Shown here piece after piece: positions 23,896-39,325 of a stretch of DNA of 64,000 nt (positions are counted from its first letter, which is position 1; every line of letters starts with the position of its first letter). The stretch covers positions 126,576-190,575 of the forward strand of contig CAJTZU010000003.1 of assembly GCA_910584165.1 (NCBI GenBank), read 5' to 3'. The position numbers and the translations under genes were made by a program. Source of the DNA: an uncultured Bacilli bacterium. Its GTDB lineage: Bacteria; Bacillota_I; Bacilli_A; RF39; UBA660. The notes below the pieces were generated by a model. It was given only the letters and a program-made list of their open reading frames with translations, searched no databases and had not been told where the DNA came from.

Positions 23896-25233
23896 ATGCG
23901 TAATTTATTTGAGGAAGAAGAATCAGTAGTAGAATTTAAGCCTCTTGCAGATAAAATGAGACCAAAGACATTAGAAGATTTTTTTGGTCAGGAAGAAGTA
24001 GTAGGGAAAGATTCTCCTATTAAACAGATGATTGAAACAGATAATATTACCTCTATGATATTTTGGGGACCTCCTGGAGTAGGAAAAACAACATTAGCTA
24101 AAATTATTGCTAGTAGTACCAATTCTGCCTTTTATGAATTAAGTGCGGTAACATCTGGTGTAAGAGAGATTAAAGAATTAATTGAACTTGCTAAATATAA
24201 TAAAAGTAATGGGAAAAGAACTATTGTATTTGTAGATGAAATTCATAGATTTAATAAGGCACAACAAGATGCTTTTCTACCACATGTAGAAAGTGGCAAT
24301 ATTATTTTAATTGGTGCTACTACTGAAAATCCATCCTTTGAGGTGAATTCCGCCTTACTATCAAGAAGTAAAGTCTATGTATTAAAAAGTCTAAGTGAAG
24401 AAAATATTGTAGGAATTTTAAAACGAGCTCTTTTAAAAAATGATAGTTATCAAAATGTAGAAATGAAAGAGGATTGTTTTTCCATTATTGCTAAAATGAG
24501 TAATGGAGATGCAAGAACTGCCCTTAATACTTTAGAAAATATTATTAATATTGCTCCATTGAAAAAGAATAAGAAAGAAATTACTAAAGAAGTCTTACAA
24601 AAGGTCTTACAAAATAAAATGTTTTTATATGATAAAAAGGGAGAGGAGCATTATAACTTAATTTCGGCTTTACATAAATCTATGCGAAATAGTGACCCAG
24701 ATGCAGCTATCTATTATTTAGCACGTATGCTAGAAGCAGGAGAAGACCCTCTTTATATTGCTAGAAGACTTATTCGTTTTGCATCAGAAGATGTAGGTAT
24801 TGCTAATCCTAATGCTTTAGTACAAGCAACGGCTGTTTATCAAGCCTGTCATTATTTAGGAATGCCAGAATGTAACGTTAATTTAGCGCAAGCGGTAGTT
24901 TATTTAAGCATTTGCCCTAAATCGAATTCTTTATATAAAGCTTATGGCATGGTAAAAGAAGATGCTATTAAAACGGCTAATGAAAAAGTGCCCCTACACC
25001 TTAGAAATGCTGTTACGAAACTAGATAAAGAATTAGGGTATGGGGAAGGATATGAATATGCCCATGAATATAAAGATAAAATTACTTCAATGGACTGTTT
25101 ACCGGAATCTTTAAAAGGAAAAAAATATTATTATCCAACAGATATTGGAAATGAAAAAGCAGCTAAGGAAACCTTAAAGAGAATAGAAGAATTAAAAAAG
25201 AAAAGGAAGGGTAAAGATGAAAATAAAATATGA
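23896..25233 (+). CDS. rarA: Replication-associated recombination protein A (AAA+ ATPase, MgsA/RarA).
   Basis: [12 protein letters not shown]...[18 protein letters not shown] (Walker A), [12 protein letters not shown] (Walker B/sensor), C-terminal MgsA helical domain. Confidence 0.9.
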
Positions 25234-25765: not shown

Positions 25766-26034
25766 TGGAATTTTTATTGGAATTTATTTTAGAACTTTTT
25801 CTAGAAGGGAGTATGGAAATTAGTTCTAATAAAAAGATTAGTAAATGGATTCGTTATCCATTAATGGCTTTTATTCTTTTCTTTTTCTTAACAGTTATAG
25901 GACTTATTTTCTTTGCTGGAATTCTTACTTTTTCTGATAATAAATTGTTATCTATTTTATTACTTCTTTGTGGTATGATTATGCTGATTGGGACGATTAT
26001 AAAGTTTAGAAATTTGTATTTAAAAAGGAAATAG
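25765..26034 (+). CDS. Small hypothetical membrane protein.
   Basis: 89 aa, two TM segments, ATGA overlap with the upstream gene. Confidence 0.4.
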   Translation: MEFLLEFILELFLEGSMEISSNKKISKWIRYPLMAFILFFFLTVIGLIFFAGILTFSDNKLLSILLLLCGMIMLIGTIIKFRNLYLKRK

Positions 26035-26035
26035 A

Positions 26036-26070
26036 GTTGTGTTTTTTACACAATTCTTTTTTTATTATTG
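26036..26070 (+). terminator. Probable terminator.
   Basis: Imperfect 9-bp stem GAGTTGTGT/ACACAATTC with loop TTTTT, then T-run. Confidence 0.5.
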
Positions 26071-26107
26071 ACAAATGTTATATACTGTTATATATTAAAT
26101 ATAACAG
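26068..26107 (+). promoter_or_regulatory. Sigma-A type promoter (TTGACA, 17-nt spacer, TATATT) overlapped by a perfect 9-bp inverted repeat, probably the GntR operator.
   Basis: TTGACA 26068-26073. TATATT 26091-26096. Inverted repeat CTGTTATAT(26085-26093)-ATTAA-ATATAACAG(26099-26107). Direct repeat TGTTATATA x2. Confidence 0.5.
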
Positions 26108-27992: not shown

Positions 27993-28022
27993 GAAAGATG
28001 AGGAAATCTTTCTTTTTTTTGA
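27993..28022 (+). terminator. Rho-independent terminator.
   Basis: Stem AAGAAAGAT/ATCTTTCTT with loop GAGGAA, then T8. Confidence 0.7.
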
Positions 28023-28046
28023 TATAATGGTGATGAGGTTATACGT

Positions 28047-28874
28047 ATGGTTGTAAAAGAAATAGAAGTAAAAGATCTAGTTACGAAATCGAATTTACCC
28101 GTAAGTGATTATGTTATTAATCCTTATGTTGGTTGTCCCCATGGGTGCAAATACTGTTATGCCTCTTTTATGAAAAGATTTACGAATCATAAAGAAGATT
28201 GGGGAACTTTTATAGATATTAAAAGATGTTCTAAGAAATTAAGTAAAAAGAAGTTAGAACATAAACGTGTCTTTTTATCTTCTGTAACAGATTGTTATAA
28301 CTCTTATGAAAAAGAGTATGAACTAACAAGGGGTGTATTAGAACAATTAGTAGATATCGATTGTTACTTAAATATTTCTACAAAATCTAATTTGATTTTA
28401 AGAGATATTGACTTATTAAAGAAAATGAAACATTTAGAAGTTTCTATTTCTATTAATACATTAGATGAAAAGTTTAGGGGGGATATGGACAATGCTTCCT
28501 CTATTCAAGAAAGATTAGAAACATTACGAATATTACATGAAAACGGTATTTATACAGTGCTATTTATGTCACCTATATTTCCTTATATTACAGATTTTAA
28601 AAAGATAATAGAGGTAAGTAAAAACTATGTAGATAGGTATTGGTTTGAAAATTTAAATTTAAGAGGTAGTTATAAAAGTGATATTTTAAATTATATAGAG
28701 AATAACTATCCAGAATACTTAAACGATTATGAAGAAATTTACAAGAAAGGAAATAAAAAATACTTTGAAGGATTATCTTTAGAGATAGAAGAGTATTGTA
28801 AGAAAAATAAAGTTTGTTACAACAATTACTTTTATCATGAGAAGTTAGTGGCAGAGAAAGTAGGGAAAAAATGA
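28047..28874 (+). CDS. Radical SAM protein of the SplB (spore-photoproduct-lyase/DNA photolyase-like) family.
   Basis: NPYVGCPHGCKYCYA carries the CxxxCxxC radical-SAM cluster motif in the SplB-type context. About 275 aa. Confidence 0.7.
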   Translation: MVVKEIEVKDLVTKSNLPVSDYVINPYVGCPHGCKYCYASFMKRFTNHKEDWGTFIDIKRCSKKLSKKKLEHKRVFLSSVTDCYNSYEKEYELTRGVLEQLVDIDCYLNISTKSNLILRDIDLLKKMKHLEVSISINTLDEKFRGDMDNASSIQERLETLRILHENGIYTVLFMSPIFPYITDFKKIIEVSKNYVDRYWFENLNLRGSYKSDILNYIENNYPEYLNDYEEIYKKGNKKYFEGLSLEIEEYCKKNKVCYNNYFYHEKLVAEKVGKK

Positions 28875-29353
28875 AAAGATTAACAAGGAGATTTATTGTT
28901 AGAAGTTTGGATAGTCTTTCTATAAGCGAGCCAATTCGTTATGAAAGGTACTATATAAATGATAATTTACGTATTCAAAAAAAGAATGCTCTTTATGAAA
29001 AAGAAGTATTGAATGAAGATAATATTGTAACAGAGAAAATAGAAATATCGGAAACAGAATTTTTAAAATTAAAGATGGGTGCTACTAGTGAAATTGTAAG
29101 AGATAGTTATCTTTACTTAAAAGATAATAGAGTGTCTATTAAGAAATACTATGGACTTTATAAAGAACTTTATAGAGTAGAAGTAACTTTTTCTAGTGCA
29201 GAAGAAATGAATGATTATCAAAAAGAAGATTGGATGTTAGAAGAAATTACTAATTCTCCTCTTGCTTTTGATAAATATTTAAGGAATCTTTCACGAGAAG
29301 ATTTTAAAAAAGAATTAGAAAAGTATATAGATGTGTGGAATGACTATGAGTAA
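28871..29353 (+). CDS. Hypothetical protein, possibly CYTH-like.
   Basis: 160 aa, overlaps its neighbours by 4 and 23 nt. Only weak resemblance to triphosphate-tunnel (CYTH) proteins. Confidence 0.45.
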   Translation: MKRLTRRFIVRSLDSLSISEPIRYERYYINDNLRIQKKNALYEKEVLNEDNIVTEKIEISETEFLKLKMGATSEIVRDSYLYLKDNRVSIKKYYGLYKELYRVEVTFSSAEEMNDYQKEDWMLEEITNSPLAFDKYLRNLSREDFKKELEKYIDVWNDYE

Positions 29354-30521
29354 AAGTGGAATAGATTTATTAAAAGAAAAAGAGAATATATTATTTCCTG
29401 ATTATAATCACTCTATTTTAAGTACAATAACTTCTATTTTAAAATATTATAGTGTAGAAACTCCCTATGTATCATTAGATTTATTAGATAAAAAGTTAGA
29501 GAAGAATTATAAAAATGTTGTTTTGATTGTATTAGATGGCATGGGAAAGAATATATTAGATAATTTACCTAATAATTACTTTAGTAATCATTTATTAGAT
29601 GTTGTTACTTCTGTATATCCTTCTACAACTCCTGCTGCTATGACAACTTATTACTCTGGAAGGCCACCAATAGAAACTGCTTGGATAGCTTGGTCACAGT
29701 ATATGAAAGAATATGGAAGATATCTAGATATTTTTCAAAAAAGAGATTCTTATACTGGAAAAGTATATAATGATATTAAAAAGGACTTATTAGAGATTAT
29801 TGGATATGAACAAATTTATGATAGAATAGAAAATGCATCACAAGATGTGAAAGTTTTTGAAGTTTCACCATCTTATGTATTAAAAAAGTCAAAGAAGTAT
29901 TTAAAAGCAGATACTGTTGATGGGATGGTAGAACATGTAAAGGTACTATGTAGTGCGGAAGGAAGAAAATTTATTTTTTGTTATCAAGATAATCCAGATG
30001 TTTTATTACATATCCATGGAACAAAATCAGAAGAAGTAAAAAATTATTTAATAGAAACAATTGCTAAAGTTGAGGAAATGACTGAAAGTTTAAAAGATAC
30101 TTTAGTAATTGTGACAGCAGACCATGGGCATCAGGATGTAGAAGAAGAATATGATATTAATGATTTTGAAACGTTAAAGGAATGTTTTATTATGCCTCCA
30201 GCACTCGAATCTAGATGCATGACATTTTGGATTAAACCAAAAATGAGAGAATACTTTCAAGAGGAATTTAACAAATGCTTTGGGCATGCTTATGTACTTT
30301 TAACAAAAGAAGAGTTTTTAGAAAATCATTTTTTAGGGTATGGAAAAGAACATAAAAAGGTTGATGATTTTCTTGGTGATTTTGTTGCTTTATCAACTAG
30401 TTCTAGTTCCATTAAGATAACTAATGATTATTATTTTGGAAAAATGAAAAAAGCTTCTACTCATTGTGGACTTACTAAGAATGAAATGTTAGTGCCAATC
30501 ATTACGATAGAAAAGGAATAA
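29331..30521 (+). CDS. Alkaline-phosphatase superfamily protein, type I phosphodiesterase/nucleotide pyrophosphatase (NPP)-like.
   Basis: VLDGMGKN (metal site 1), YPSTTPAAMTTYYSGRPPIETAW (Thr nucleophile block like NPP TKTFPNHY...TGLYPE), VTADHGHQD (metal site 2). Confidence 0.6.
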   Translation: MCGMTMSKSGIDLLKEKENILFPDYNHSILSTITSILKYYSVETPYVSLDLLDKKLEKNYKNVVLIVLDGMGKNILDNLPNNYFSNHLLDVVTSVYPSTTPAAMTTYYSGRPPIETAWIAWSQYMKEYGRYLDIFQKRDSYTGKVYNDIKKDLLEIIGYEQIYDRIENASQDVKVFEVSPSYVLKKSKKYLKADTVDGMVEHVKVLCSAEGRKFIFCYQDNPDVLLHIHGTKSEEVKNYLIETIAKVEEMTESLKDTLVIVTADHGHQDVEEEYDINDFETLKECFIMPPALESRCMTFWIKPKMREYFQEEFNKCFGHAYVLLTKEEFLENHFLGYGKEHKKVDDFLGDFVALSTSSSSIKITNDYYFGKMKKASTHCGLTKNEMLVPIITIEKE

Positions 30522-30525
30522 ATGG

Positions 30526-31083
30526 ATGAAAGAAAAGATAAATGAAATACTACTCTCCGGAAATATTTTAGAAAATATGGACTTTTTATTAAGTGTTATT
30601 CCAGAACTTAAATTTATGGTAGGATTTAACCATAAACATCCCCATCATCATTTAGATGTTTGGAATCATACATTAGAAGTAGTAAGAAATGTAGATAGTG
30701 ATTTAGAGTTAAGAATGGCAGCACTTCTTCATGATGTTGGCAAACCTTTTTCTTATCAAGAAGGGGAAGTTAGACATTTTCATGGTCATCCAGAAGTATC
30801 TGCTAGAATGTCACAGGGCATATTAGAAAGATTACAGTATGATGAAATATTTATACAACATATTTTTTATCTAGTAAAAAATCATGATACACCAATTGAT
30901 CCAGATAATTTAGATAATGAATTTAACTTAGTAGAAAAAAGATTACAATTGCAATATGCGGATGCTTTAGCGCATCATCCTGATAAAGTAAGACAAAGAA
31001 TAGAAAGATTAGATGCTATAAAAGTATCTTTAGATAGTAAGAAACCAAAAGTGAAAGTAATAAGAAAGGAAGATGAAGTATGA
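30526..31083 (+). CDS. HD-domain phosphohydrolase (CCA-enzyme-type HD domain).
   Basis: HPHHHLDVWNHTLEVV ... LLHDVGKP matches the H...HD...H...D signature. Confidence 0.7.
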   Translation: MKEKINEILLSGNILENMDFLLSVIPELKFMVGFNHKHPHHHLDVWNHTLEVVRNVDSDLELRMAALLHDVGKPFSYQEGEVRHFHGHPEVSARMSQGILERLQYDEIFIQHIFYLVKNHDTPIDPDNLDNEFNLVEKRLQLQYADALAHHPDKVRQRIERLDAIKVSLDSKKPKVKVIRKEDEV

Positions 31084-31478
31084 AAGAAATTGATAAAATA
31101 GCGTTTATTTATTTAAAAGATAAGAAAATATTATCTACCTTATCAAAAGGAAAGGATGCCTACTATATTCCAGGAGGGAAAAGAGATGGCAATGAGACTG
31201 ATGAAGAAACTTTAATTCGTGAGTGCAAAGAAGAGCTTACCATTGATATCAAAAAAGATACGATAAAATATTATGGAACTTTTAAAGCACAAGCTCATGG
31301 AAAAGCTGAGGGAATTATTGTGAAAATGACTTGCTATGAAGCAGAGTTTGATGGAAATTTAGAAGCTGATAGTGAGATTCAAGAAGTGGTATGGTTAGAG
31401 TACAAAGACTTAGATAAGATTTCGCCAGTAGATAAATTGATTTTTCAAGATTTACATGATAAAGGATTATTAGATTAA
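31080..31478 (+). CDS. NUDIX hydrolase.
   Basis: Nudix box PGGKRDGNETDEETLIRECKEELTIDI. ATGA overlap with the HD gene. Confidence 0.75.
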   Translation: MKEIDKIAFIYLKDKKILSTLSKGKDAYYIPGGKRDGNETDEETLIRECKEELTIDIKKDTIKYYGTFKAQAHGKAEGIIVKMTCYEAEFDGNLEADSEIQEVVWLEYKDLDKISPVDKLIFQDLHDKGLLD

Positions 31479-31514
31479 TCCTTTTTTTTATGTTATAATG
31501 GAATAGGTGATAGT

Positions 31515-32381
31515 ATGGAATTAATACATGTAAAAGGAAATACTTATTATATAAAGAATGCTACTAACATTGGTGTTTATAAAATAGATGAGAATAGTGT
31601 TTATCTAATAGATACAGGAAATGATTCTGATGCTGGAAAGAAGATATTAAAATTATTAGAACAAGAAAATTTAAAAGTAATGGGAATTATCAATACGCAT
31701 TCTAATGCTGACCATGTTGGTGGAAATAAAGTTATTCAAGATAGAACTGGATGTCAAATATTAGGCTATGGAATTGAAAAAAGTATTACAGAATATCCTT
31801 TATTAGAACCTTCCTTCTTATATGGAGGCTATCCTTTTAAAGAACTAAAAAATAAATTTTTATATGCAAAGCCTTCTATTGTTAAAGATATTGATAGTAA
31901 TCTTCCTAAAGGATTAGAATATTTTTTCTTACGGGGACATTTTTTTGATATGATTGGTATTAAAACAGATGATAATGTTTATTTTTTAGGTGATTCTTTA
32001 TTTAGTGAAGAAACAATTACGAAATATCATGTATCCTTTTTATATGATGTAAGAGAATTTTTGAATACTTTAGATTATTTAAATACCTTGGAAGGAATCT
32101 ATATTCCCTCTCATGTAGAAATGACTACAGATATTACTTCCTTAATTGAAAAGAATAGAAAAAATGTAGAAGAAGTATTAGAAGTTATTTATCATTATTG
32201 TCAAGAAAGTACCATGGAAGAGATTATGAAAAGAGTATTTGAGCACTATGGATTAGTAATGAATATTAGTCAATATGTACTAATTGGAAGTACTATTAAA
32301 TCTTATTTATCTTATCTTTATGAAGAAAATAGAATTACTTATGAATTTATTGATAATAGAATGATTTGGAAAAGAGTATGA
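31515..32381 (+). CDS. MBL-fold metallo-hydrolase.
   Basis: INTHSNADHVGGN (HxHxDH motif). 288 aa. Confidence 0.75.
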   Translation: MELIHVKGNTYYIKNATNIGVYKIDENSVYLIDTGNDSDAGKKILKLLEQENLKVMGIINTHSNADHVGGNKVIQDRTGCQILGYGIEKSITEYPLLEPSFLYGGYPFKELKNKFLYAKPSIVKDIDSNLPKGLEYFFLRGHFFDMIGIKTDDNVYFLGDSLFSEETITKYHVSFLYDVREFLNTLDYLNTLEGIYIPSHVEMTTDITSLIEKNRKNVEEVLEVIYHYCQESTMEEIMKRVFEHYGLVMNISQYVLIGSTIKSYLSYLYEENRITYEFIDNRMIWKRV

Positions 32382-32391
32382 AAGCAGTAAA

Positions 32392-32877
32392 ATGGTTGAG
32401 TTTTTGTACTGTATTTTGATAGTTTTAATATTTCTGATAGGCTTTCTTTTTAAAATGTCTTCCTCAAAATATATTAAAAAAGAAATTGGGATTGATATTT
32501 CTTCTTGTGAAATTATAAAAGATTTAGATACTCACGGTGGGTGTATGGGGGGTGGTTCCTACTTATTAGTAGCAGATTGTGAAAAAGTTAGAGGAGATAT
32601 TTTGCAACAAATGAGTAATTGAAAAAAATTTCCTTTATCAGAAAATCTTCAACTAGAAATTTATGGTGGAGAAAAAGATGGAGTTACTTTTGCTTCCAAT
32701 GACTATGCTTCTATTCCTAAAATAGAAAACGGTTATTATTATTTTTATAATAGACATCATGAAGCAAAGAGTGCTTTTAGTGATGAAGATTTATTTGATA
32801 ATTTTTCTTATAATTATACAGTTTCTTTCTATGATGAAGATACGAATTTCTTCTATTACTTTGAAATGGATACTTAA
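32392..32877 (+). pseudogene. Small membrane-anchored protein gene interrupted by an in-frame TGA at 32620-32622. Either a nonsense pseudogene or a 76-aa protein plus an untranslated remnant.
   Basis: ORF 32392..32622 and the next 84 codons (32623..32874, stop TAA 32875-32877) are in the same frame. The distal part has good coding character (KKFPLSENLQLEIYGGEKDGVTFASNDYASIPK...) but no in-frame start codon. Confidence 0.35.
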
Positions 32878-32888
32878 AAAGGTGATTT

Positions 32889-33632
32889 ATGAAAAAAAAG
32901 AGAATGAAAAAAGTTCAAAATTTATGGTGTAGCTTTTTATTGATTGCTATATTTACTATTTTCCAACTTTATCAAAATCATATAAAGGATGCCAGTGCTA
33001 CATTAAAGAAATCGTCAAATATAAATTCAGTTCCTTCTTATTCTTTAAATGATATTCCAACTTATAATGGGGAACTTTCTATTATAATTGATAATAACAT
33101 ACCGCTTTTTAAGGAAGAAGATTATACGAATAAAAGTTTTGAAATTTATAGCGAATTAGATTCACTAGGAAGAGTTGGAACTGCTTTTGCTAATGTTGGG
33201 ATGGATTTAATGCCAACTGAAAAAAGAGGAAGCATTGGAATGGTTAAACCAAGTGGTTGGCACACTGTAAAATATGATATAGTAGATGGAAAATATTTAT
33301 ATAATCGATGTCATTTAATTGGATATCAATTAACAGGGGAAAATGCGAATGAAAAAAATTTAATGACTTGCACGAGAGCGATGAATACAATTGGTATGTT
33401 ACCATTTGAAAATCGAGTAGCAGAATACATTAAGGAAACTAAAAATCATGTTCTTTATCGTGTAACTCCTATTTATGAGAACGATAATTTGTTAGCAAAT
33501 GGAGTAATTATAGAAGCTAGTTCTGTAGAAGATAGAGGTTCTAGTTTACAATTTTATGTATATGTCTATAATGCTCAGGAAGGTATTGAAATAAATTATC
33601 AAACAGGAGAAAGTAAATTGAAAGGGGATTAG
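32889..33632 (+). CDS. Secreted DNA/RNA non-specific endonuclease (EndA/streptodornase-like).
   Basis: Signal peptide. NRCHLIGYQLTGENANEKNLMTCTRAMN resembles the D/NRxH...N active-site block of DNA-entry and sugar-non-specific nucleases. Confidence 0.5.
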   Translation: MKKKRMKKVQNLWCSFLLIAIFTIFQLYQNHIKDASATLKKSSNINSVPSYSLNDIPTYNGELSIIIDNNIPLFKEEDYTNKSFEIYSELDSLGRVGTAFANVGMDLMPTEKRGSIGMVKPSGWHTVKYDIVDGKYLYNRCHLIGYQLTGENANEKNLMTCTRAMNTIGMLPFENRVAEYIKETKNHVLYRVTPIYENDNLLANGVIIEASSVEDRGSSLQFYVYVYNAQEGIEINYQTGESKLKGD

Positions 33633-33785
33633 AAAACTAATTCTTTTTTTGTCACTTAGAAGTCACTTTCCTTTTCTATAATTACTTTGTAGAGTGTTTA
33701 AGTCTATTTTTGAAGAAAAAAGTATCAAAGAATAGTAAAATATAAGAGAAAAAGTGTTATTTTATAAGTTATTATAAGAAAAATG

Positions 33786-33794
33786 TGCTATAAT
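33786..33794 (+). promoter_or_regulatory. Extended -10 element TGTGCTATAAT for the dlt-like operon.
   Basis: TGnTATAAT lies 37 nt upstream of the ATG at 33831. It is read as 'MCYN' by the ORF finder. Confidence 0.45.
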
Positions 33795-33830
33795 GGCTTT
33801 GGAATAGCAAATGAAAAAGAAGGAAGTGGC

Positions 33831-35348
33831 ATGATGTATAACATAATTGATTATTTAGAACAATCTGCTACCAGATATAAGGATAAAATAGCGGTTATAG
33901 AAGAGGATAAACAAATTACGTATTCTAATTTGCAAAATAGTAGTAAAGTTGTAGGTTCTTATTTTGCTGAGCAAAAAGTATTTAATGAGCCTATTCTTGT
34001 ATTTATGGATAAAGGAATTGATACCTTAATTACTTTTTTTGGAATTGTTTATGCAGGATGTTATTATTCGTTAATAAATCCAGAATTACCAGAAAATAGA
34101 ATTAACCAAATAAAAAATGTGACTGGCGCTAGATTTGTTGTTACAGATGATGAGCATCAGGAATTGGCGAGTACTTATTTTAAAGATATTCAAGTAAAAA
34201 ATGTAAAAAAATTAAAACAAGGTAACTTAAATGAAGCCGCTTTATTAGAGGCTAGGATAAATCATATTGATTATGACCCATTATATGTTAACTTTACTTC
34301 TGGTTCAACGGGGGTACCAAAAGGTGTAGTTATTTCTCACCGCTCTGTCATTGATTTCATTGATAAATTTACAGAAATTTTTCACTTTCATGAAAATGAG
34401 CGAATTGCAAATCAAGCGCCATTTGATTTTGATGTATCCGTAAAAGATATTTATTCAAGTATTAAAGTAGGAGCTACTTTGGTTATTGTGCCAAAGAAAT
34501 ATTTTTCCACTCCATCTGCATTACTAGATTATTTATGTGATAATGAAGTAACAACGATGACTTGGGCAGTATCCGCTTTATGTTTGATTACTACTTTTCA
34601 TGGATTAGATTATAAAGTTCCTACTACTGTTGAAAAAATTATCTTTAGTGGAGAAGTAATGCCACTAAAGCATTTGAAACAATGGATGGAACATTTACCG
34701 AATACGATGTTTGTTAATATTTATGGTCCTACTGAGATAACCTGTAATTGTACTTATCATATCATTGATCGAAATCGTGAGTATGATGATAAAATACCAA
34801 TTGGCAAAGCATTCCCAAACGAGAGAGTAATTCTTTTAGATGATGAGAATAATGAAGTTCATGAACCAAATAAAGTAGGAGAGTTGTGTGTAGCAGGTAC
34901 CTCTTTGGCGCTCGGTTATTATAATAATGAAGAACAAACTAGTAAGCATTTTGTTCAAAATCCTAATATTAAAAACTATATTGAATATATTTATCGTACA
35001 GGTGATTTGGCTTATTACAATAAAGAGGGAGAACTTGTATTTAATGGTCGAAAGGATTTTCAAATTAAATACCTAGGTCATCGTATTGAATTAGAAGAAA
35101 TTGATAAAGCTATTATGGAATATGATGAAGTTATTAGAAGTTGCACTATTTTTGATGAGGAAAAGTCAAAAGTATATGGATTTTATATTGGTGATATTTC
35201 TAAAAAAGATTTACATGCAAAATTACGTAGTGCACTACCAGCTTATATGATACCAACTGTTTTAGTTCAAATGGAAGAATTTCCAATGACAAAAAATGGC
35301 AAAATAGATAGAAAAAAACTAATGGAATTAAAGGATGTGAAGAAGTAA
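33831..35348 (+). CDS. DltA-like carrier-protein ligase (adenylate-forming enzyme, AMP-binding superfamily).
   Basis: The ATG at 33831 follows AAGGAAGTGG. The track ORF starts at 33783, inside the promoter. Core motifs NFTSGSTGVPKGVVISH (A3), YGPTE (A5), YRTGDL (A8), GRKDFQIKYLGHRIELEEI (A10-like). About 505 aa, the typical DltA size. Confidence 0.8.
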   Translation: MMYNIIDYLEQSATRYKDKIAVIEEDKQITYSNLQNSSKVVGSYFAEQKVFNEPILVFMDKGIDTLITFFGIVYAGCYYSLINPELPENRINQIKNVTGARFVVTDDEHQELASTYFKDIQVKNVKKLKQGNLNEAALLEARINHIDYDPLYVNFTSGSTGVPKGVVISHRSVIDFIDKFTEIFHFHENERIANQAPFDFDVSVKDIYSSIKVGATLVIVPKKYFSTPSALLDYLCDNEVTTMTWAVSALCLITTFHGLDYKVPTTVEKIIFSGEVMPLKHLKQWMEHLPNTMFVNIYGPTEITCNCTYHIIDRNREYDDKIPIGKAFPNERVILLDDENNEVHEPNKVGELCVAGTSLALGYYNNEEQTSKHFVQNPNIKNYIEYIYRTGDLAYYNKEGELVFNGRKDFQIKYLGHRIELEEIDKAIMEYDEVIRSCTIFDEEKSKVYGFYIGDISKKDLHAKLRSALPAYMIPTVLVQMEEFPMTKNGKIDRKKLMELKDVKK

Positions 35349-36508
35349 TGGATTATGAGAAGTTAATACAAGAACATGGAACTCCAACATACCTTTATGA
35401 TATCGAAACACTTATTAATCGTGTTAATTACTTAAAAAGCAAATTCGATGATGAAATTCACATGGTTTACGCTGTTAAGGCAAATACTTTTATTGCAAAA
35501 GAATTAGAACAAGATGTAGAGCGTTATGAAATCTGTTCTCCGGGAGAATTTAGAATATGCAATAATCTTTCTATTGATAGAAAGAAAATGGTAATTTCAG
35601 GCGTTTATAAGGACTATGAAACAATTGAAAATATGATTTCTAGTTATGATGATATTGGAAAATATACTATTGAGTCCGTTTCTCAATATGAATTATTAAA
35701 AGAACTTACTAGAAAGTATGAGCGACATATTCATATTTTAATTCGTCTAACATCAGGCAATCAATTTGGTGTCAATGAAGAAGAATTTTTAACTATTTTA
35801 AAAGATAAAAACGAGTTTATTATGGTAGATGGAATTGAATACTTTTCAGGTACCCAAAAACATTCTATTAAAAAAATTAATAGAGAAGTTGATTACTTAG
35901 TGGAATTTATAAGTAAGTTGGAAAGTTCTTTAGGAATATCTTTAAAAGAGGTAGAATTCGGACCAGGGTTACCAGTTTTTTACTTTCAAGATGATGAATT
36001 TGATGAAGAAGAATTTTTAACAGAAGTAAACTTAGCTCTTCGCAAAATGAAAGGAAAGGTTATTTCTTTGGAAATAGGGCGTAGTATTGCTGCTAGTTGT
36101 GGTACTTATCTCACGAAAGTAGTAGATATGAAGAGTAATAAAAATGGAAATTTTACATTGGTAGATGGTGGTATTCATCAACTCGTTTATTATGGTCAAA
36201 CAATGGCTATGAGAATTCCTTTTTTTGATGTAATGCCAAAAAGGGATGGAGAGCTAAATACGTATAATTTATATGGTTCTTTATGTACTATCAATGATAT
36301 TTTAGTGAAAAATATCACTGTTCCAAAGTTAGAAATAGGGGATGTTTTCCTATTTAAAAATGTTGGTGCTTATTCATCAACAGAAGGTATTTCTTTATTT
36401 TTAAGTAGAGATTTACCAAAAGTATTAATTTGTAGTAGAGATAAAAAAATTAGTGTTGTTAGGGATAGAATAAAAACAAGTGAATTAAATTTCCCTAACT
36501 ATCAATAG
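35348..36508 (+). CDS. PLP-dependent decarboxylase of the Orn/DAP/Arg decarboxylase (fold III, LysA-like) family.
   Basis: N-terminal TIM-barrel with YAVKAN (PLP-Lys block), C-terminal beta-domain with NVGAYSS (GAY motif). ATGG overlap with the ligase gene. Confidence 0.75.
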   Translation: MDYEKLIQEHGTPTYLYDIETLINRVNYLKSKFDDEIHMVYAVKANTFIAKELEQDVERYEICSPGEFRICNNLSIDRKKMVISGVYKDYETIENMISSYDDIGKYTIESVSQYELLKELTRKYERHIHILIRLTSGNQFGVNEEEFLTILKDKNEFIMVDGIEYFSGTQKHSIKKINREVDYLVEFISKLESSLGISLKEVEFGPGLPVFYFQDDEFDEEEFLTEVNLALRKMKGKVISLEIGRSIAASCGTYLTKVVDMKSNKNGNFTLVDGGIHQLVYYGQTMAMRIPFFDVMPKRDGELNTYNLYGSLCTINDILVKNITVPKLEIGDVFLFKNVGAYSSTEGISLFLSRDLPKVLICSRDKKISVVRDRIKTSELNFPNYQ

Positions 36509-36521
36509 GAGTGTGTTTAAA

Positions 36522-36749
36522 ATGGAAAAATTAATTGAAATATTAGAAAGTTTACAACCAGATGTAGATTATGAAACAACAGAAAATTTAATTGACGGAA
36601 GATATTTAGATTCGCTAACAATCTTATCTTTAGTGGCTGAGATAGAAGAAGAATTCGATGTTGAGATTCCAACAGTAGAGATTATTCCAGCCAATTTTAA
36701 TTCTGCAAAAAAAATATATGAGATGATTGAGAGATTAAGAGAAGAATAG
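36522..36749 (+). CDS. Small carrier protein (DltC/acyl-carrier-protein like).
   Basis: 75 aa. YLDSLTILSLVAEIEEEFDVEI carries the phosphopantetheine-attachment DSL motif. The ATG at 36522 follows AGGAGTG. The track start at 36513 is GTG. Confidence 0.75.
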   Translation: MEKLIEILESLQPDVDYETTENLIDGRYLDSLTILSLVAEIEEEFDVEIPTVEIIPANFNSAKKIYEMIERLREE

Positions 36750-36759
36750 AGGATTTATA

Positions 36760-38349
36760 ATGAATTACTTTGATTTAACTTATATTTTTCTTTTCTTACC
36801 AATTGTCATTATTGTTTATAATATAATGCCAAAAAAGATTAAACCTGCTATTTTGTTATTAGCAAGTTTTGTCTTCTTTTTTATGATTAGTAAGTTTTTG
36901 ATTGCCTTTTTACTTTTATCTATCTTATCGGTTTATTTAGGCACAAGATGGATGTCAAAGGTTGATAGGAAACGTGATGAAGTTTTAGAGAGTACTGAAA
37001 AAGAACAAAAAAAAGAAATTAAAAATAAGTATAGGCGAAGAAAAAAATTAATATTAATTTTAGTAATATTATTTAATATTACTTTTCTATTTGCTTTTAA
37101 ATATTTAAAGTTCTTTACTTTAAATACTAATTTTTTACTAAATTGTATGCATGTTGGATGGAGAATAAAAGTATTTAAATTTATGGCCCCAATTGGAATT
37201 TCTTATTATACTTTACAAGCCATATCGTATATAGTAGATGTTTATCAAGAAAAAGTAGAAGCAGATAAAAATATTATAAGAGTCTCTTTATATTTATCTT
37301 TTTTTCCACAGATTATGGAAGGACCTATTGCTAGATATAGTCAAACAGCACATGCTTTATATGAGCGTGTTAGAGTGAATTTTCAAAATTTTTGCTTCGG
37401 TTATCAACGTATCTTATATGGCCTTTTTAAAAAGTTTGTTATAGCAGATAGATTAAATGTAGTAGTGGGAAAAATATTTAGTAATTATCAAAATTATGAT
37501 GGTATTACCATTTTTATGGGGATTGCTTTTTATACGTTATTACTTTATATGGAATTTTCTGGCACAATGGATGTTGTAATTGGTAGTGGAGAAATCTTTA
37601 ATGTAAAAATACCTGAGAACTTTAGACAGCCTTTTTTCGCCAAAAACATATCAGAGTTTTGGACAAGATGGCATATTAGTTTAGGTGCTTGGTTTAAAGA
37701 CTATATTTTCTATCCTGTTTCTTTGTCAAAGCCAATGAAGAAATTGACGATGAGGGCAAGAAAAGGATTAGGAAATCATTTAGGGGCTTTAATTAGTGGC
37801 GCTATTGCTCTGTTTGCTGTTTGGTTTTTAAATGGATTATGGCATGGTGCAGGGTGGACTTTTCTATTTTATGGTTTATATCAATTTACCTTAATATTAA
37901 GTGGTAATATAGCAGAACCATTTATAAAAGATTTATGCACAAAATTAAAAATTAATCGCCAAAATATTGCTTATCGAATTTTTCAATCTGTAAAAATGAC
38001 TTTTTTTGTATTCATTGGAGAGCTATTTTTTAGAGCTCCTACTTTAGAAGTAGGATTTGGAATGTTAAAAATGATGTTTACGAAGATTCATATTTCAACT
38101 CTTTGGAATGGCAATTTATTTAAGTTAGGCATGGATAAAAAAGATTTCTTAATTGTCTTTTTAGCCCTTATAGTCATTTTTATAGTCAGTATTTTACGAG
38201 AGAAGAATATTAATATTCGCGAAAGTATCAGTAAGAAAAATATTGGTATTCGCTGGTTAATTTATTATGCTCTTATTTTAGCGATTATTATATTTGGAGC
38301 TTATGGACCAGGTTATATTCCAGTAGATCCAATTTATGCAGACTTCTAG
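36760..38349 (+). CDS. MBOAT-family membrane O-acyltransferase, DltB-like.
   Basis: Multi-TM protein with FWTRWHISLGAWFKDYIFYPV and a conserved His block. 529 aa. Follows the carrier gene by 10 nt. Confidence 0.85.
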   Translation: MNYFDLTYIFLFLPIVIIVYNIMPKKIKPAILLLASFVFFFMISKFLIAFLLLSILSVYLGTRWMSKVDRKRDEVLESTEKEQKKEIKNKYRRRKKLILILVILFNITFLFAFKYLKFFTLNTNFLLNCMHVGWRIKVFKFMAPIGISYYTLQAISYIVDVYQEKVEADKNIIRVSLYLSFFPQIMEGPIARYSQTAHALYERVRVNFQNFCFGYQRILYGLFKKFVIADRLNVVVGKIFSNYQNYDGITIFMGIAFYTLLLYMEFSGTMDVVIGSGEIFNVKIPENFRQPFFAKNISEFWTRWHISLGAWFKDYIFYPVSLSKPMKKLTMRARKGLGNHLGALISGAIALFAVWFLNGLWHGAGWTFLFYGLYQFTLILSGNIAEPFIKDLCTKLKINRQNIAYRIFQSVKMTFFVFIGELFFRAPTLEVGFGMLKMMFTKIHISTLWNGNLFKLGMDKKDFLIVFLALIVIFIVSILREKNINIRESISKKNIGIRWLIYYALILAIIIFGAYGPGYIPVDPIYADF

Positions 38350-39325
38350 GAGTGATAGTATGAAGAAATTTTTTAAAAGTATTGTTTTTGTATTTATTTT
38401 ACTTCTTTTAGTAGAAACTCTTACATTAGTATTATTACCAGGCAGAAATGTTAAAAAATATGGAGTATTTGAAGTAGCAGCTTATGAAATTTTAGGGGAA
38501 GAAGAAAATACGATTGATGTTATAGCAGCAGGAGATAGTTTAGTTTATAGTTCTCTTTCTCCTATGGAAATATGGAAGCATTTTGGTTATACTGTTTTTG
38601 ACTGTGCCTCTGCTGCCCAAATTATTCCGGATACTTATGATTTTTTGAAAGTTGGAATTAAAAGTCAACATCCTAAGATTGTGCTTATGGAAGCAAATGT
38701 TCTTTTTAGAGATCCTGCCAAAAAGAAACAAGAGAATAAACTACTTGATTATTTAAAGTATTATTTTCCAATTGCTAAATATCATGATAATTGGAAAAAG
38801 TATATTACTTATGGTAGAAAAAAAAATTGGGCAAATGTTTATAAGGGATATAAGTTTATCAATAAAGTAGAGCCTGCAACTGAAATTCATCCTATGAGTG
38901 GTTCTAAAAAAAGAAGGGAAATTATAAAAAGTAATTTACAAACTTTTGATGATATTGTAAAACTTTGTGAAGAGAATAATGTAAAACTAGTATTAGTCGC
39001 TTTCCCAACACAGAGTACATGGAGTTCTAAAAAGCATAATTCTACTCAGGATTTAGCAGAAAAATATGGTTTAGAATTTATAGATTTGAATTTAGTTGAT
39101 TTAGGAATCAATTGGGAAACAGATACTAAAGATGCTGGAAATCATTTAAATTATAAAGGCGCAATAAAAGTTTCCAAATATATTGGAAACTACTTAGAAA
39201 GTACAAATATATTAAAAGATCATCGCAAAGATGAAAAATATAAATCTTATATAAATGCTTATCGCATTTATTATCAGAATCATAAAGAACAATTAGATAA
39301 AATAGAAACGACTGCTATAGAATAA
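38336..39325 (+). CDS. DltD-like or SGNH-type extracytoplasmic protein (acyl-transfer/esterase partner).
   Basis: N-terminal TM anchor, VIAAGDSLVYSSL (GDS block). Overlaps the MBOAT gene by 14 nt. Confidence 0.6.
   Translation: MQTSRSDSMKKFFKSIVFVFILLLLVETLTLVLLPGRNVKKYGVFEVAAYEILGEEENTIDVIAAGDSLVYSSLSPMEIWKHFGYTVFDCASAAQIIPDTYDFLKVGIKSQHPKIVLMEANVLFRDPAKKKQENKLLDYLKYYFPIAKYHDNWKKYITYGRKKNWANVYKGYKFINKVEPATEIHPMSGSKKRREIIKSNLQTFDDIVKLCEENNVKLVLVAFPTQSTWSSKKHNSTQDLAEKYGLEFIDLNLVDLGINWETDTKDAGNHLNYKGAIKVSKYIGNYLESTNILKDHRKDEKYKSYINAYRIYYQNHKEQLDKIETTAIE

Follow-up and report, generated by a model that had tools for sequence, protein, structure and literature searches.

A closely spaced run of radical SAM, CYTH-like, NPP, HD, Nudix, and MBL genes in an uncultured Bacilli bacterium is probably a clade-specific set of independently evolving genes

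The subject of this analysis is a run of closely spaced genes in a 64,000-nucleotide stretch of DNA (hereafter the window) from an uncultured Bacilli bacterium of the GTDB lineage Bacillota_I; Bacilli_A; RF39; UBA660 (contig CAJTZU010000003.1 of GenBank assembly GCA_910584165.1). Six open reading frames (ORFs) on the + strand at 28047-32381 encode, in order, a radical S-adenosylmethionine (SAM) enzyme, a 160-aa protein, a protein resembling nucleotide pyrophosphatases/phosphodiesterases (NPP), an HD-domain protein, a NUDIX protein, and a protein of the metallo-β-lactamase (MBL) fold. An initial annotation had described these ORFs and proposed that they are co-expressed members of a dedicated nucleotide repair, salvage, or signal-degrading pathway. 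When the window proteins were scanned against Pfam and NCBIfam, the six ORFs and their families were borne out, with above-cutoff Pfam domains in five of them (Radical_SAM, Phosphodiest, HD, NUDIX, and Lactamase_B). The dedicated pathway is not supported: the initial annotation itself had named a lack of conserved gene order in related genomes as a refutation, and the order is absent outside one narrow clade of gut Bacilli for all three of the genes that we used as anchors. We therefore favor, with some confidence, the view that the run is a clade-specific and probably polycistronic set of independently evolving housekeeping genes of the house-cleaning/salvage type and not a conserved multi-enzyme pathway.

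The three anchors were the gene for the 160-aa protein (called CYTH-like below), the radical SAM gene, and the NPP gene. With the CYTH-like anchor, we compared one genome per species. This gave 75 loci, which were searched by tblastn with all window proteins over the gene and as much as 10 kb on either side. The cluster was present in only two of these 75 species genomes (L003 and L007), the first being an uncultured mouse-gut Bacilli metagenome-assembled genome (MAG; MGBC165900) that belongs to the same species and is 98% identical at the anchor gene. In the roughly 70 other CYTH-anchored genomes, the neighbors are variable and include YlqF-like GTPase, ASCH, NT5C, and GNAT genes, the YlqF-like GTPase gene lying 3' of the CYTH-like gene in four loci. 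The radical SAM anchor, for which 88 loci were collected (8 exact look-ups and 80 metagenome loci), recovered the cluster only in L086, where the enzyme is 81% identical. Its commonest neighbor is a DUF5680 gene, found in 20 of 86 loci (L092, L098, L100, L109-L111, L129, L133, L140, L143-L145, L147-L152, L157, and L160), upstream in 6 and downstream in 14, with seven combinations of flanking genes at -1/+1; there is no DUF5680 gene in the window. The NPP anchor gave orthologs of 52-54% identity in three lineages (L166, L168, and L170, 8001-11500), all within an NPP-CBS-AI-2E_transport-DUF1980_C block in which the CBS protein has 148 aa, and no other gene of the cluster, CYTH-like gene included, lies near NPP in these loci. 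As a functional unit, this block is more credible than the cluster in the window. The cluster is thus confined to L001-L003, L007, L086, and L171, where the radical SAM enzyme is at least 81% identical, and is missing from ~70 other CYTH-anchored genomes, ~85 radical-SAM-anchored loci, and the 3 NPP-anchored lineages.

Within this clade, the six genes are no better conserved than their surroundings, because the flanking genes are equally syntenic, around 20 of them where the contig reaches, from a Transglut_core gene just upstream of RarA to a Dlt-like operon. In L171, where the radical SAM enzyme is 83% identical, the whole region of ~20 genes is kept in the order Transglut_core, HTH, DUF4097, RarA, two small membrane genes, GntR, ABC, ABC-2, the run (seven genes, as described below), endonuclease, DltA-like, and Orn/DAP decarboxylase. 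The next-nearest ortholog, in L172 (74%), sits in an entirely different context (helicase-sigma70_r4-HTH-rSAM-HTH-...-ProRS, with rSAM for radical SAM). This sharp boundary between L171 and L172 means that the conservation seen in the clade is background synteny, and conservation of the six genes is indistinguishable from that of the region as a whole. The juxtaposition would have arisen once, in the ancestor of the narrow clade, and persisted through general synteny. The block is also eroding within the clade: the NPP gene of L007 (10464-11654) has an in-frame TAA, a 295-aa ORF, SDR-like by eye, is inserted between NUDIX and MBL in the same genome, the MBL gene of L086 (11465-12332) is frameshifted, and a seventh gene of the run carries a premature TGA in the window.

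The tight spacing of the run, read from the ORF coordinates, was part of the initial case for a pathway. The radical SAM gene and the gene for the 160-aa protein share an ATGA (4-nt overlap); the latter overlaps the NPP ORF by 23 nt, or by 8 nt with the ATG at 29346 of the public gene calls; NPP and HD are separated by 4 nt; HD and NUDIX again overlap by 4 nt through an ATGA; and 36 nt separate NUDIX from MBL. The initial annotation ended the run at 32381. The six genes are indeed there, but the run extends further, with a seventh gene and a gene for a secreted endonuclease following at gaps of 10-11 nt and reaching 33632. Such spacing is not special to the run, because 26 of the 58 same-strand junctions in the window have gaps of 20 nt or less (and 13 of the 58 are overlaps), RarA (23896-25233) and an unrelated membrane protein being among the tightly spaced pairs. 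The window has 26-31% G+C, mostly ~27-28%, and its + strand holds 65 of the 73 ORFs. Tight spacing is therefore generic in the window and hardly informative for the six genes. More generally, closely packed genes with related chemistries are not, on that ground alone, a sign of a pathway in Firmicute genomes that are compact and strongly co-oriented.

Co-expression, the other part of the proposal, is likely. Since the genes overlap or nearly abut, and a scan of the window found no terminator-like site between them, the run is probably co-transcribed; the sole terminator predicted inside it (31813-31828, within MBL) is weak and no more than chance would produce. Upstream lies a GntR/ABC/ABC-2 module that ends 54 nt short of the radical SAM gene and is preceded, according to the program scan, by a terminator (26033-26057) and a strong promoter (26068-26096). 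Reading the sequence after the ABC-2 permease gene, we found a weak terminator-like hairpin on the + strand (27993..28020; GAAAGAT-GAGGAA-ATCTTTC, then T8). Only 2 of its 7 bp are G-C pairs, and the consensus terminator scan does not report it. The hairpin is followed by an extended -10-like element, TGATATAAT (28020..28028, +), 18 nt upstream of the radical SAM start, which is possibly an internal promoter. Transcription would begin at TGATATAAT or, if it reads through the weak hairpin, at the GntR promoter (26068-26096), and the transcript would cover seven or eight genes, through to the endonuclease, with translational coupling at the ATGA overlaps. No riboswitch or other regulatory RNA matched Rfam at the gathering threshold anywhere in the window. 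SOS regulation was considered and rejected, as the window contains no Cheo/LexA box (CGAAC-N4-GTTCG, up to 2 mismatches).

The products of the run are new members of known superfamilies, and none of them reaches an NCBIfam equivalog cutoff for a characterized enzyme. The radical SAM enzyme (28047..28874, +, 275 aa) matches Pfam Radical_SAM with 66.5 bits, is TIGR04470-like and of the COG1533 type, and has its CX3CX2C motif at C30/C34/C37, invariant in 14 homologs. Among NCBIfam models, TIGR04470 (radical SAM mobile pair protein B) scores highest, but its 333.4 bits fall short of the cutoff of 410, and the PA0069 and Rv2578c families score lower. A TIGR04470 gene is expected to have another radical SAM gene, "pair A", next to it; the block contains none, and the neighbors are the ABC-2 permease gene and the CYTH-like gene. 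The closest known systems are SplB and the wider COG1533 group, with the PA0069 and Rv2578c families and TIGR04470, and the label "SplB-family" given to the enzyme at first holds only in a loose COG1533 sense. The enzyme has the CX3CX2C motif expected of SplB, but no spore photoproduct lyase (SPL) model is among its NCBIfam matches at E ≤ 0.01, and no SPL chain in the PDB is matched by the radical SAM family profile even at E ≤ 10. A bona fide spore photoproduct lyase was rejected for want of a sequence match to SPL, and fold comparison did not single SPL out. From its family membership, the enzyme would cleave SAM at the CX3CX2C cluster and probably attack a nucleic acid or nucleotide. It has more than 8,000 homologs, among them thousands of sequences from gut Bacilli and Clostridia, and those listed are mostly ~65-74% identical, with the majority at 70-74%; homologs in this range (P0121-P0240, loci L078-L165) carry Bacilli and Clostridia labels. 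Their contexts are highly variable, often with Fic, HTH_3, recombinase, or transposase genes, a pattern compatible with frequent relocation or horizontal transfer. A literature search yielded no paper on TIGR04470 or a "radical SAM mobile pair", and none of use for DUF5680. A very highly conserved, uncharacterized radical SAM family with DUF5680 as its commonest neighbor and a modest excess of nucleotide hydrolases nearby is a mildly new observation.

For the 160-aa protein (28871..29353, +), neither Pfam, CYTH included, nor NCBIfam gave a match. A fold search was required because a sequence search of the PDB returned only spurious ParM matches (E > 0.2), so that kinship at the sequence level with a solved structure was discarded. 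In Foldseek, the AlphaFold2 model (predicted local distance difference test score of 92.3) matched best the triphosphatase NE1496 (3typ/2fbl; E 1.6e-8, TM-score 0.74-0.82); the lower-ranking matches were further triphosphate tunnel metalloenzymes (TTMs) and class IV adenylate cyclases. The model thus predicts an eight-stranded CYTH β-tunnel fold, and the initial guess of such a fold was right at that level, since NE1496 ranks first. In the family alignment, R-L-T-R-R-F stands in place of E-x-E-x-K-F, with L4, T5, and R7 invariant, as are the basic tunnel residues R23, R34, K38, R77, K91, and R102. By hhalign, RVEVTF of the window protein pairs with LVEVEF of NE1496, the second Glu giving way to K or T. 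Among 1.84 billion representatives searched by profile, there were only 273 relatives (representatives at 50% identity). ExExK (e.g., EIERKF) is present in 58 of the 86 full-length (at least 140 aa) representatives among the 150 best matches, and the nearest full-length relatives of the window protein are without it. By alignment, the protein belongs to a derived CYTH subfamily that has lost three of four acidic metal ligands. It shares with the inorganic triphosphatase NE1496 (NeuTTM) the tunnel fold and the basic tunnel residues, and its profile reaches EIERKF-type CYTH proteins; whereas TTMs of the NE1496 type carry ExExK and VEVEF, the window protein has R-L-T-R-R and RVEV(K/T)F and is probably no metal-dependent triphosphatase. 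With ExExK and one Glu of the VEVEF strand lost, we infer that it is more likely a binder of triphosphate or polyphosphate than a hydrolase. The small ExExK-less subfamily, which has no Pfam annotation, is also mildly new.

Two further features of CYTH-like genes were seen outside the clade. Canonical, ExExK-bearing relatives occur as fusions (P0386, P0420, P0398, and P0424) with Nudix, AAA_18 kinase-like, TRM5/cap-guanine-N2-type methyltransferase, and YecM domains. A distant group of CYTH-like genes (38-41% identity; L066, L067, L069, L070, L072, and L073) has the arrangement ASCH-CYTH-NT5C or ASCH-CYTH-cupin, with an ASCH gene upstream in 5 of the 6 loci (not L066) and a gene for an NT5C-type 5'-nucleotidase or a small cupin downstream.

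Catalytic motifs are kept in the NPP-like, HD, and Nudix proteins. The NPP-like alkaline-phosphatase-superfamily enzyme (29346..30521, +, 391 aa), whose ORF is open from 29331 and whose start at 29346 is that of the public gene calls, matches Phosphodiest (PF01663) with 61.6 bits against a cutoff of 23. Its translation contains VLDGMG, PSTT, and ADHGH, the metal ligands and Thr nucleophile that it has in common with NPP enzymes, from which it differs in being cytoplasmic (no signal peptide was seen) and in having no characterized ortholog. Family membership predicts a phosphodiesterase or pyrophosphatase that uses two metals and a Thr nucleophile. The stand-alone HD/HDIG domain (30526..31083, +, 185 aa) matches Pfam HD (PF01966) with 40.7 bits (cutoff 22) and HDIG with 36.1 bits (cutoff 27.6), contains LLHDVGKP, is closest to the HD domain of CCA-adding enzymes (TIGR02692, E 5.4e-14), and would act as a metal-dependent phosphohydrolase. 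The Nudix hydrolase (31080..31478, +, 132 aa; Pfam NUDIX, PF00293, 42.7 bits against a cutoff of 21.1) has a Nudix box, G33-x5-E39-x7-R47-E48-x2-E51-E52 (G-x5-E-x7-RE-x2-EE), within GGKRDGNETDEETLIRECKEEL, matches NudG and MutT models weakly and always below cutoff, and would hydrolyze a nucleoside-diphosphate-X compound. In the MBL-fold protein (31515..32381, +, 288 aa; Pfam Lactamase_B, 63.8 bits), the motif is H-S-N-A-D-H and not HxHxDH, the second His being replaced by Asn, as in L007 (13602-14471), and its metal site would be a variant one. Like house-cleaning hydrolases such as MutT/NudG-type Nudix, HD, and Ham1/RdgB proteins, the Nudix and HD proteins of the window are small, stand-alone, and weakly similar to known models; unlike the named ones, they reach no equivalog cutoff. 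Judging by these families, each product of the run most likely acts alone.

Several observations weigh against independence of these genes. Five phosphate-cleaving folds occur among six adjacent genes, which is unlikely under random gene placement, although this category was chosen post hoc and the weight of the local concentration is limited accordingly. Among the other 62 window ORFs, none of NUDIX, HD, MBL, and Phosphodiest has two or more members (as judged from the top 25 families). The evidence on HD, NUDIX, and MBL is indirect, coming from the loci of the three anchors. The pseudogene-like lesions described above come from MAG or metagenome assemblies, so that assembly errors could account for them. 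A nucleotide-related theme also recurs around orthologs elsewhere: NUDIX-NT5C-rSAM-NUDIX-UvrD is found in L080-L082 and L089, with an HD gene 4 kb upstream, and rSAM-NUDIX in L090, L099, and L139; an HD gene adjoins the CYTH-like gene in L034 and lies three genes upstream of it in L019 and L033; and P0386, the canonical CYTH relative mentioned above, is fused to a Nudix domain. ORFs with a Nudix box occupy 7 of 191 slots within 2 genes of the radical SAM gene versus 8 of 1209 background clusters (odds ratio 5.7, Fisher p 0.002, the lineages not being independent).

The strongest alternative is that the run is a lineage-specific operon for a single nucleotide or nucleic-acid repair or salvage pathway, in which the radical SAM enzyme would process a damaged or modified nucleotide or a DNA lesion; the NPP, HD, Nudix, MBL, and CYTH-fold proteins would process the phosphorylated products; and the secreted endonuclease may feed the pathway. 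Likely co-transcription, the local concentration of phosphohydrolase folds, the recurrence of Nudix, NT5C, and HD genes near radical SAM orthologs, NT5C beside distant CYTH-like genes, and the CYTH-Nudix fusion all speak for it, as does the listing of COG1533/Rv2578c-type radical SAM genes in studies of LexA regulons from other phyla (PMC3381160, PMC4951493, and PMC8565304). Set against this, no orthologous pair of cluster genes is conserved outside the one narrow clade, NPP and MBL appear broken in two clade members, the CYTH-like protein is without the catalytic signature, and the absence of a Cheo/LexA box extends to the whole window. In addition, most neighbors of radical SAM orthologs (DUF5680, GNAT, Fic, and HTH genes) are not nucleotide-related. 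We consider such an operon unlikely, and clade-specific, independently evolving genes remain our preferred explanation of the run.

The hydrolases next to radical SAM orthologs in at least 2 other lineages are not orthologous to those in the window. By Pfam, NUDIX is only mildly more frequent near the radical SAM gene than far away: the neighbors within 2 genes, in 124 distinct clusters, comprise GNAT 6, Fic 4, NUDIX 3, HTH_3 3, HD 2, HAD 2, His_Phos 2, and RlaP 2, and a comparison set of 150 distant genes contains GNAT 3, NUDIX 2, and Lactamase_B_2 2. Near the CYTH-like gene, Nudix shows no enrichment (3 of 257 versus 5 of 879). The recurrence of Nudix and NT5C near the radical SAM gene and the CYTH-Nudix fusion thus suggest a shared nucleotide theme and not a pathway, namely that both families, radical SAM and CYTH-fold, deal with nucleotides or the ends of nucleic acids; this theme is weak and no evidence for a six-gene pathway. 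In a more specific version, the target of the radical SAM enzyme may be a nucleotide or nucleic-acid end that is damaged or modified, and its partners may be nearby hydrolases that vary by lineage (Nudix, NT5C, or HD). The ExExK-less CYTH protein may be a factor binding triphosphate ends or polyphosphate in that process, and the clade of the window would have put together an unusually complete form of a loose "nucleotide sanitation" module. This we hold to be quite improbable. If true, a tie between the radical SAM enzyme and nucleotide sanitation would help to reveal what COG1533-type "SplB-like" enzymes do in non-spore-forming bacteria.

Another scenario is that the run is the remnant of an older and larger nucleotide-metabolism neighborhood that was scrambled in most descendants, scattered pairings such as HD/CYTH-like, radical SAM/Nudix, and CYTH-like/NT5C being relics. 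The HD protein next to the CYTH-like gene in L034 is 51% identical to that of the window, an NPP-like gene lies three genes from the CYTH-like gene in L047 and L054, an MBL gene is within 10 kb in L025 and L076, and a radical SAM gene is within 5 kb in L009. Altogether, there are ~9 sporadic matches, against ~3.5 expected by our own estimate for single-copy orthologs placed randomly in genomes of ~2 Mb. Many of these matches, however, are only 30-34% identical and are possibly paralogs, so that more of them would be expected by chance; each arrangement is seen in 3 loci at most; and the NPP orthologs have their own different and well-conserved block. Such a history seems to us very unlikely. 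Least credible of all, and close to dismissible, is an anti-phage defense or second-messenger-degrading island, clearing for example cyclic nucleotide signals, since for all that HD, Nudix, MBL, and NPP folds are all found in signal-degrading enzymes and PADLOC gave weak matches of the Nudix protein to the candidate PDC-S07 (51.5 bits) and of the radical SAM enzyme to PDC-M41B and PDC-M30B (~23 bits), no known defense-system architecture is matched in PADLOC, no cyclase, effector, sensor, or mobile-element gene flanks the run, and members of the clade keep the region as a stable part of the chromosome. A known defense system was likewise rejected, as PADLOC returned only weak single-protein matches, those of the Cas3-HD type stemming from generic HD similarity.

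The two genes that follow MBL may form a unit of their own. The seventh gene (32392..32877, +) encodes, by comparison with L002, a membrane-anchored protein of 161 aa when intact, which has no Pfam match. A change of TGG to TGA at 32620-32622, also present in L001, shortens the product to 76 aa in the window; full-length versions occur in L002 (161 aa), L007 (170 aa), and L171 (173 aa). The endonuclease gene (32889..33632, +) starts 11 nt past the intact seventh gene and encodes a DNA/RNA non-specific endonuclease of 247 aa (Pfam Endonuclea_NS_2, 89.6 bits) that is predicted to be secreted, with an N-terminal hydrophobic signal-like segment in the translation. In every clade case, the seventh gene ends 5-15 nt before the endonuclease gene. 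This arrangement suggests a nuclease-partner pair, in which the seventh-gene product is possibly an inhibitor or immunity protein of the endonuclease.

Elsewhere in the window, outside 28047-33632, further genes connected with the care of DNA or nucleotides are scattered; besides RarA, they encode DUF5131, a 6-O-methylguanine methyltransferase domain, and a Ham1-like NTP pyrophosphatase. An Imm33 immunity-protein domain is also present. Immediately downstream, at 33783-39325, is a Dlt-like operon of tightly coupled genes with an unusual extra member, whose products are a DltA-like AMP-ligase, a protein of the Orn/DAP/Arg-decarboxylase fold, a small carrier protein, an MBOAT protein, and a 329-aa protein.

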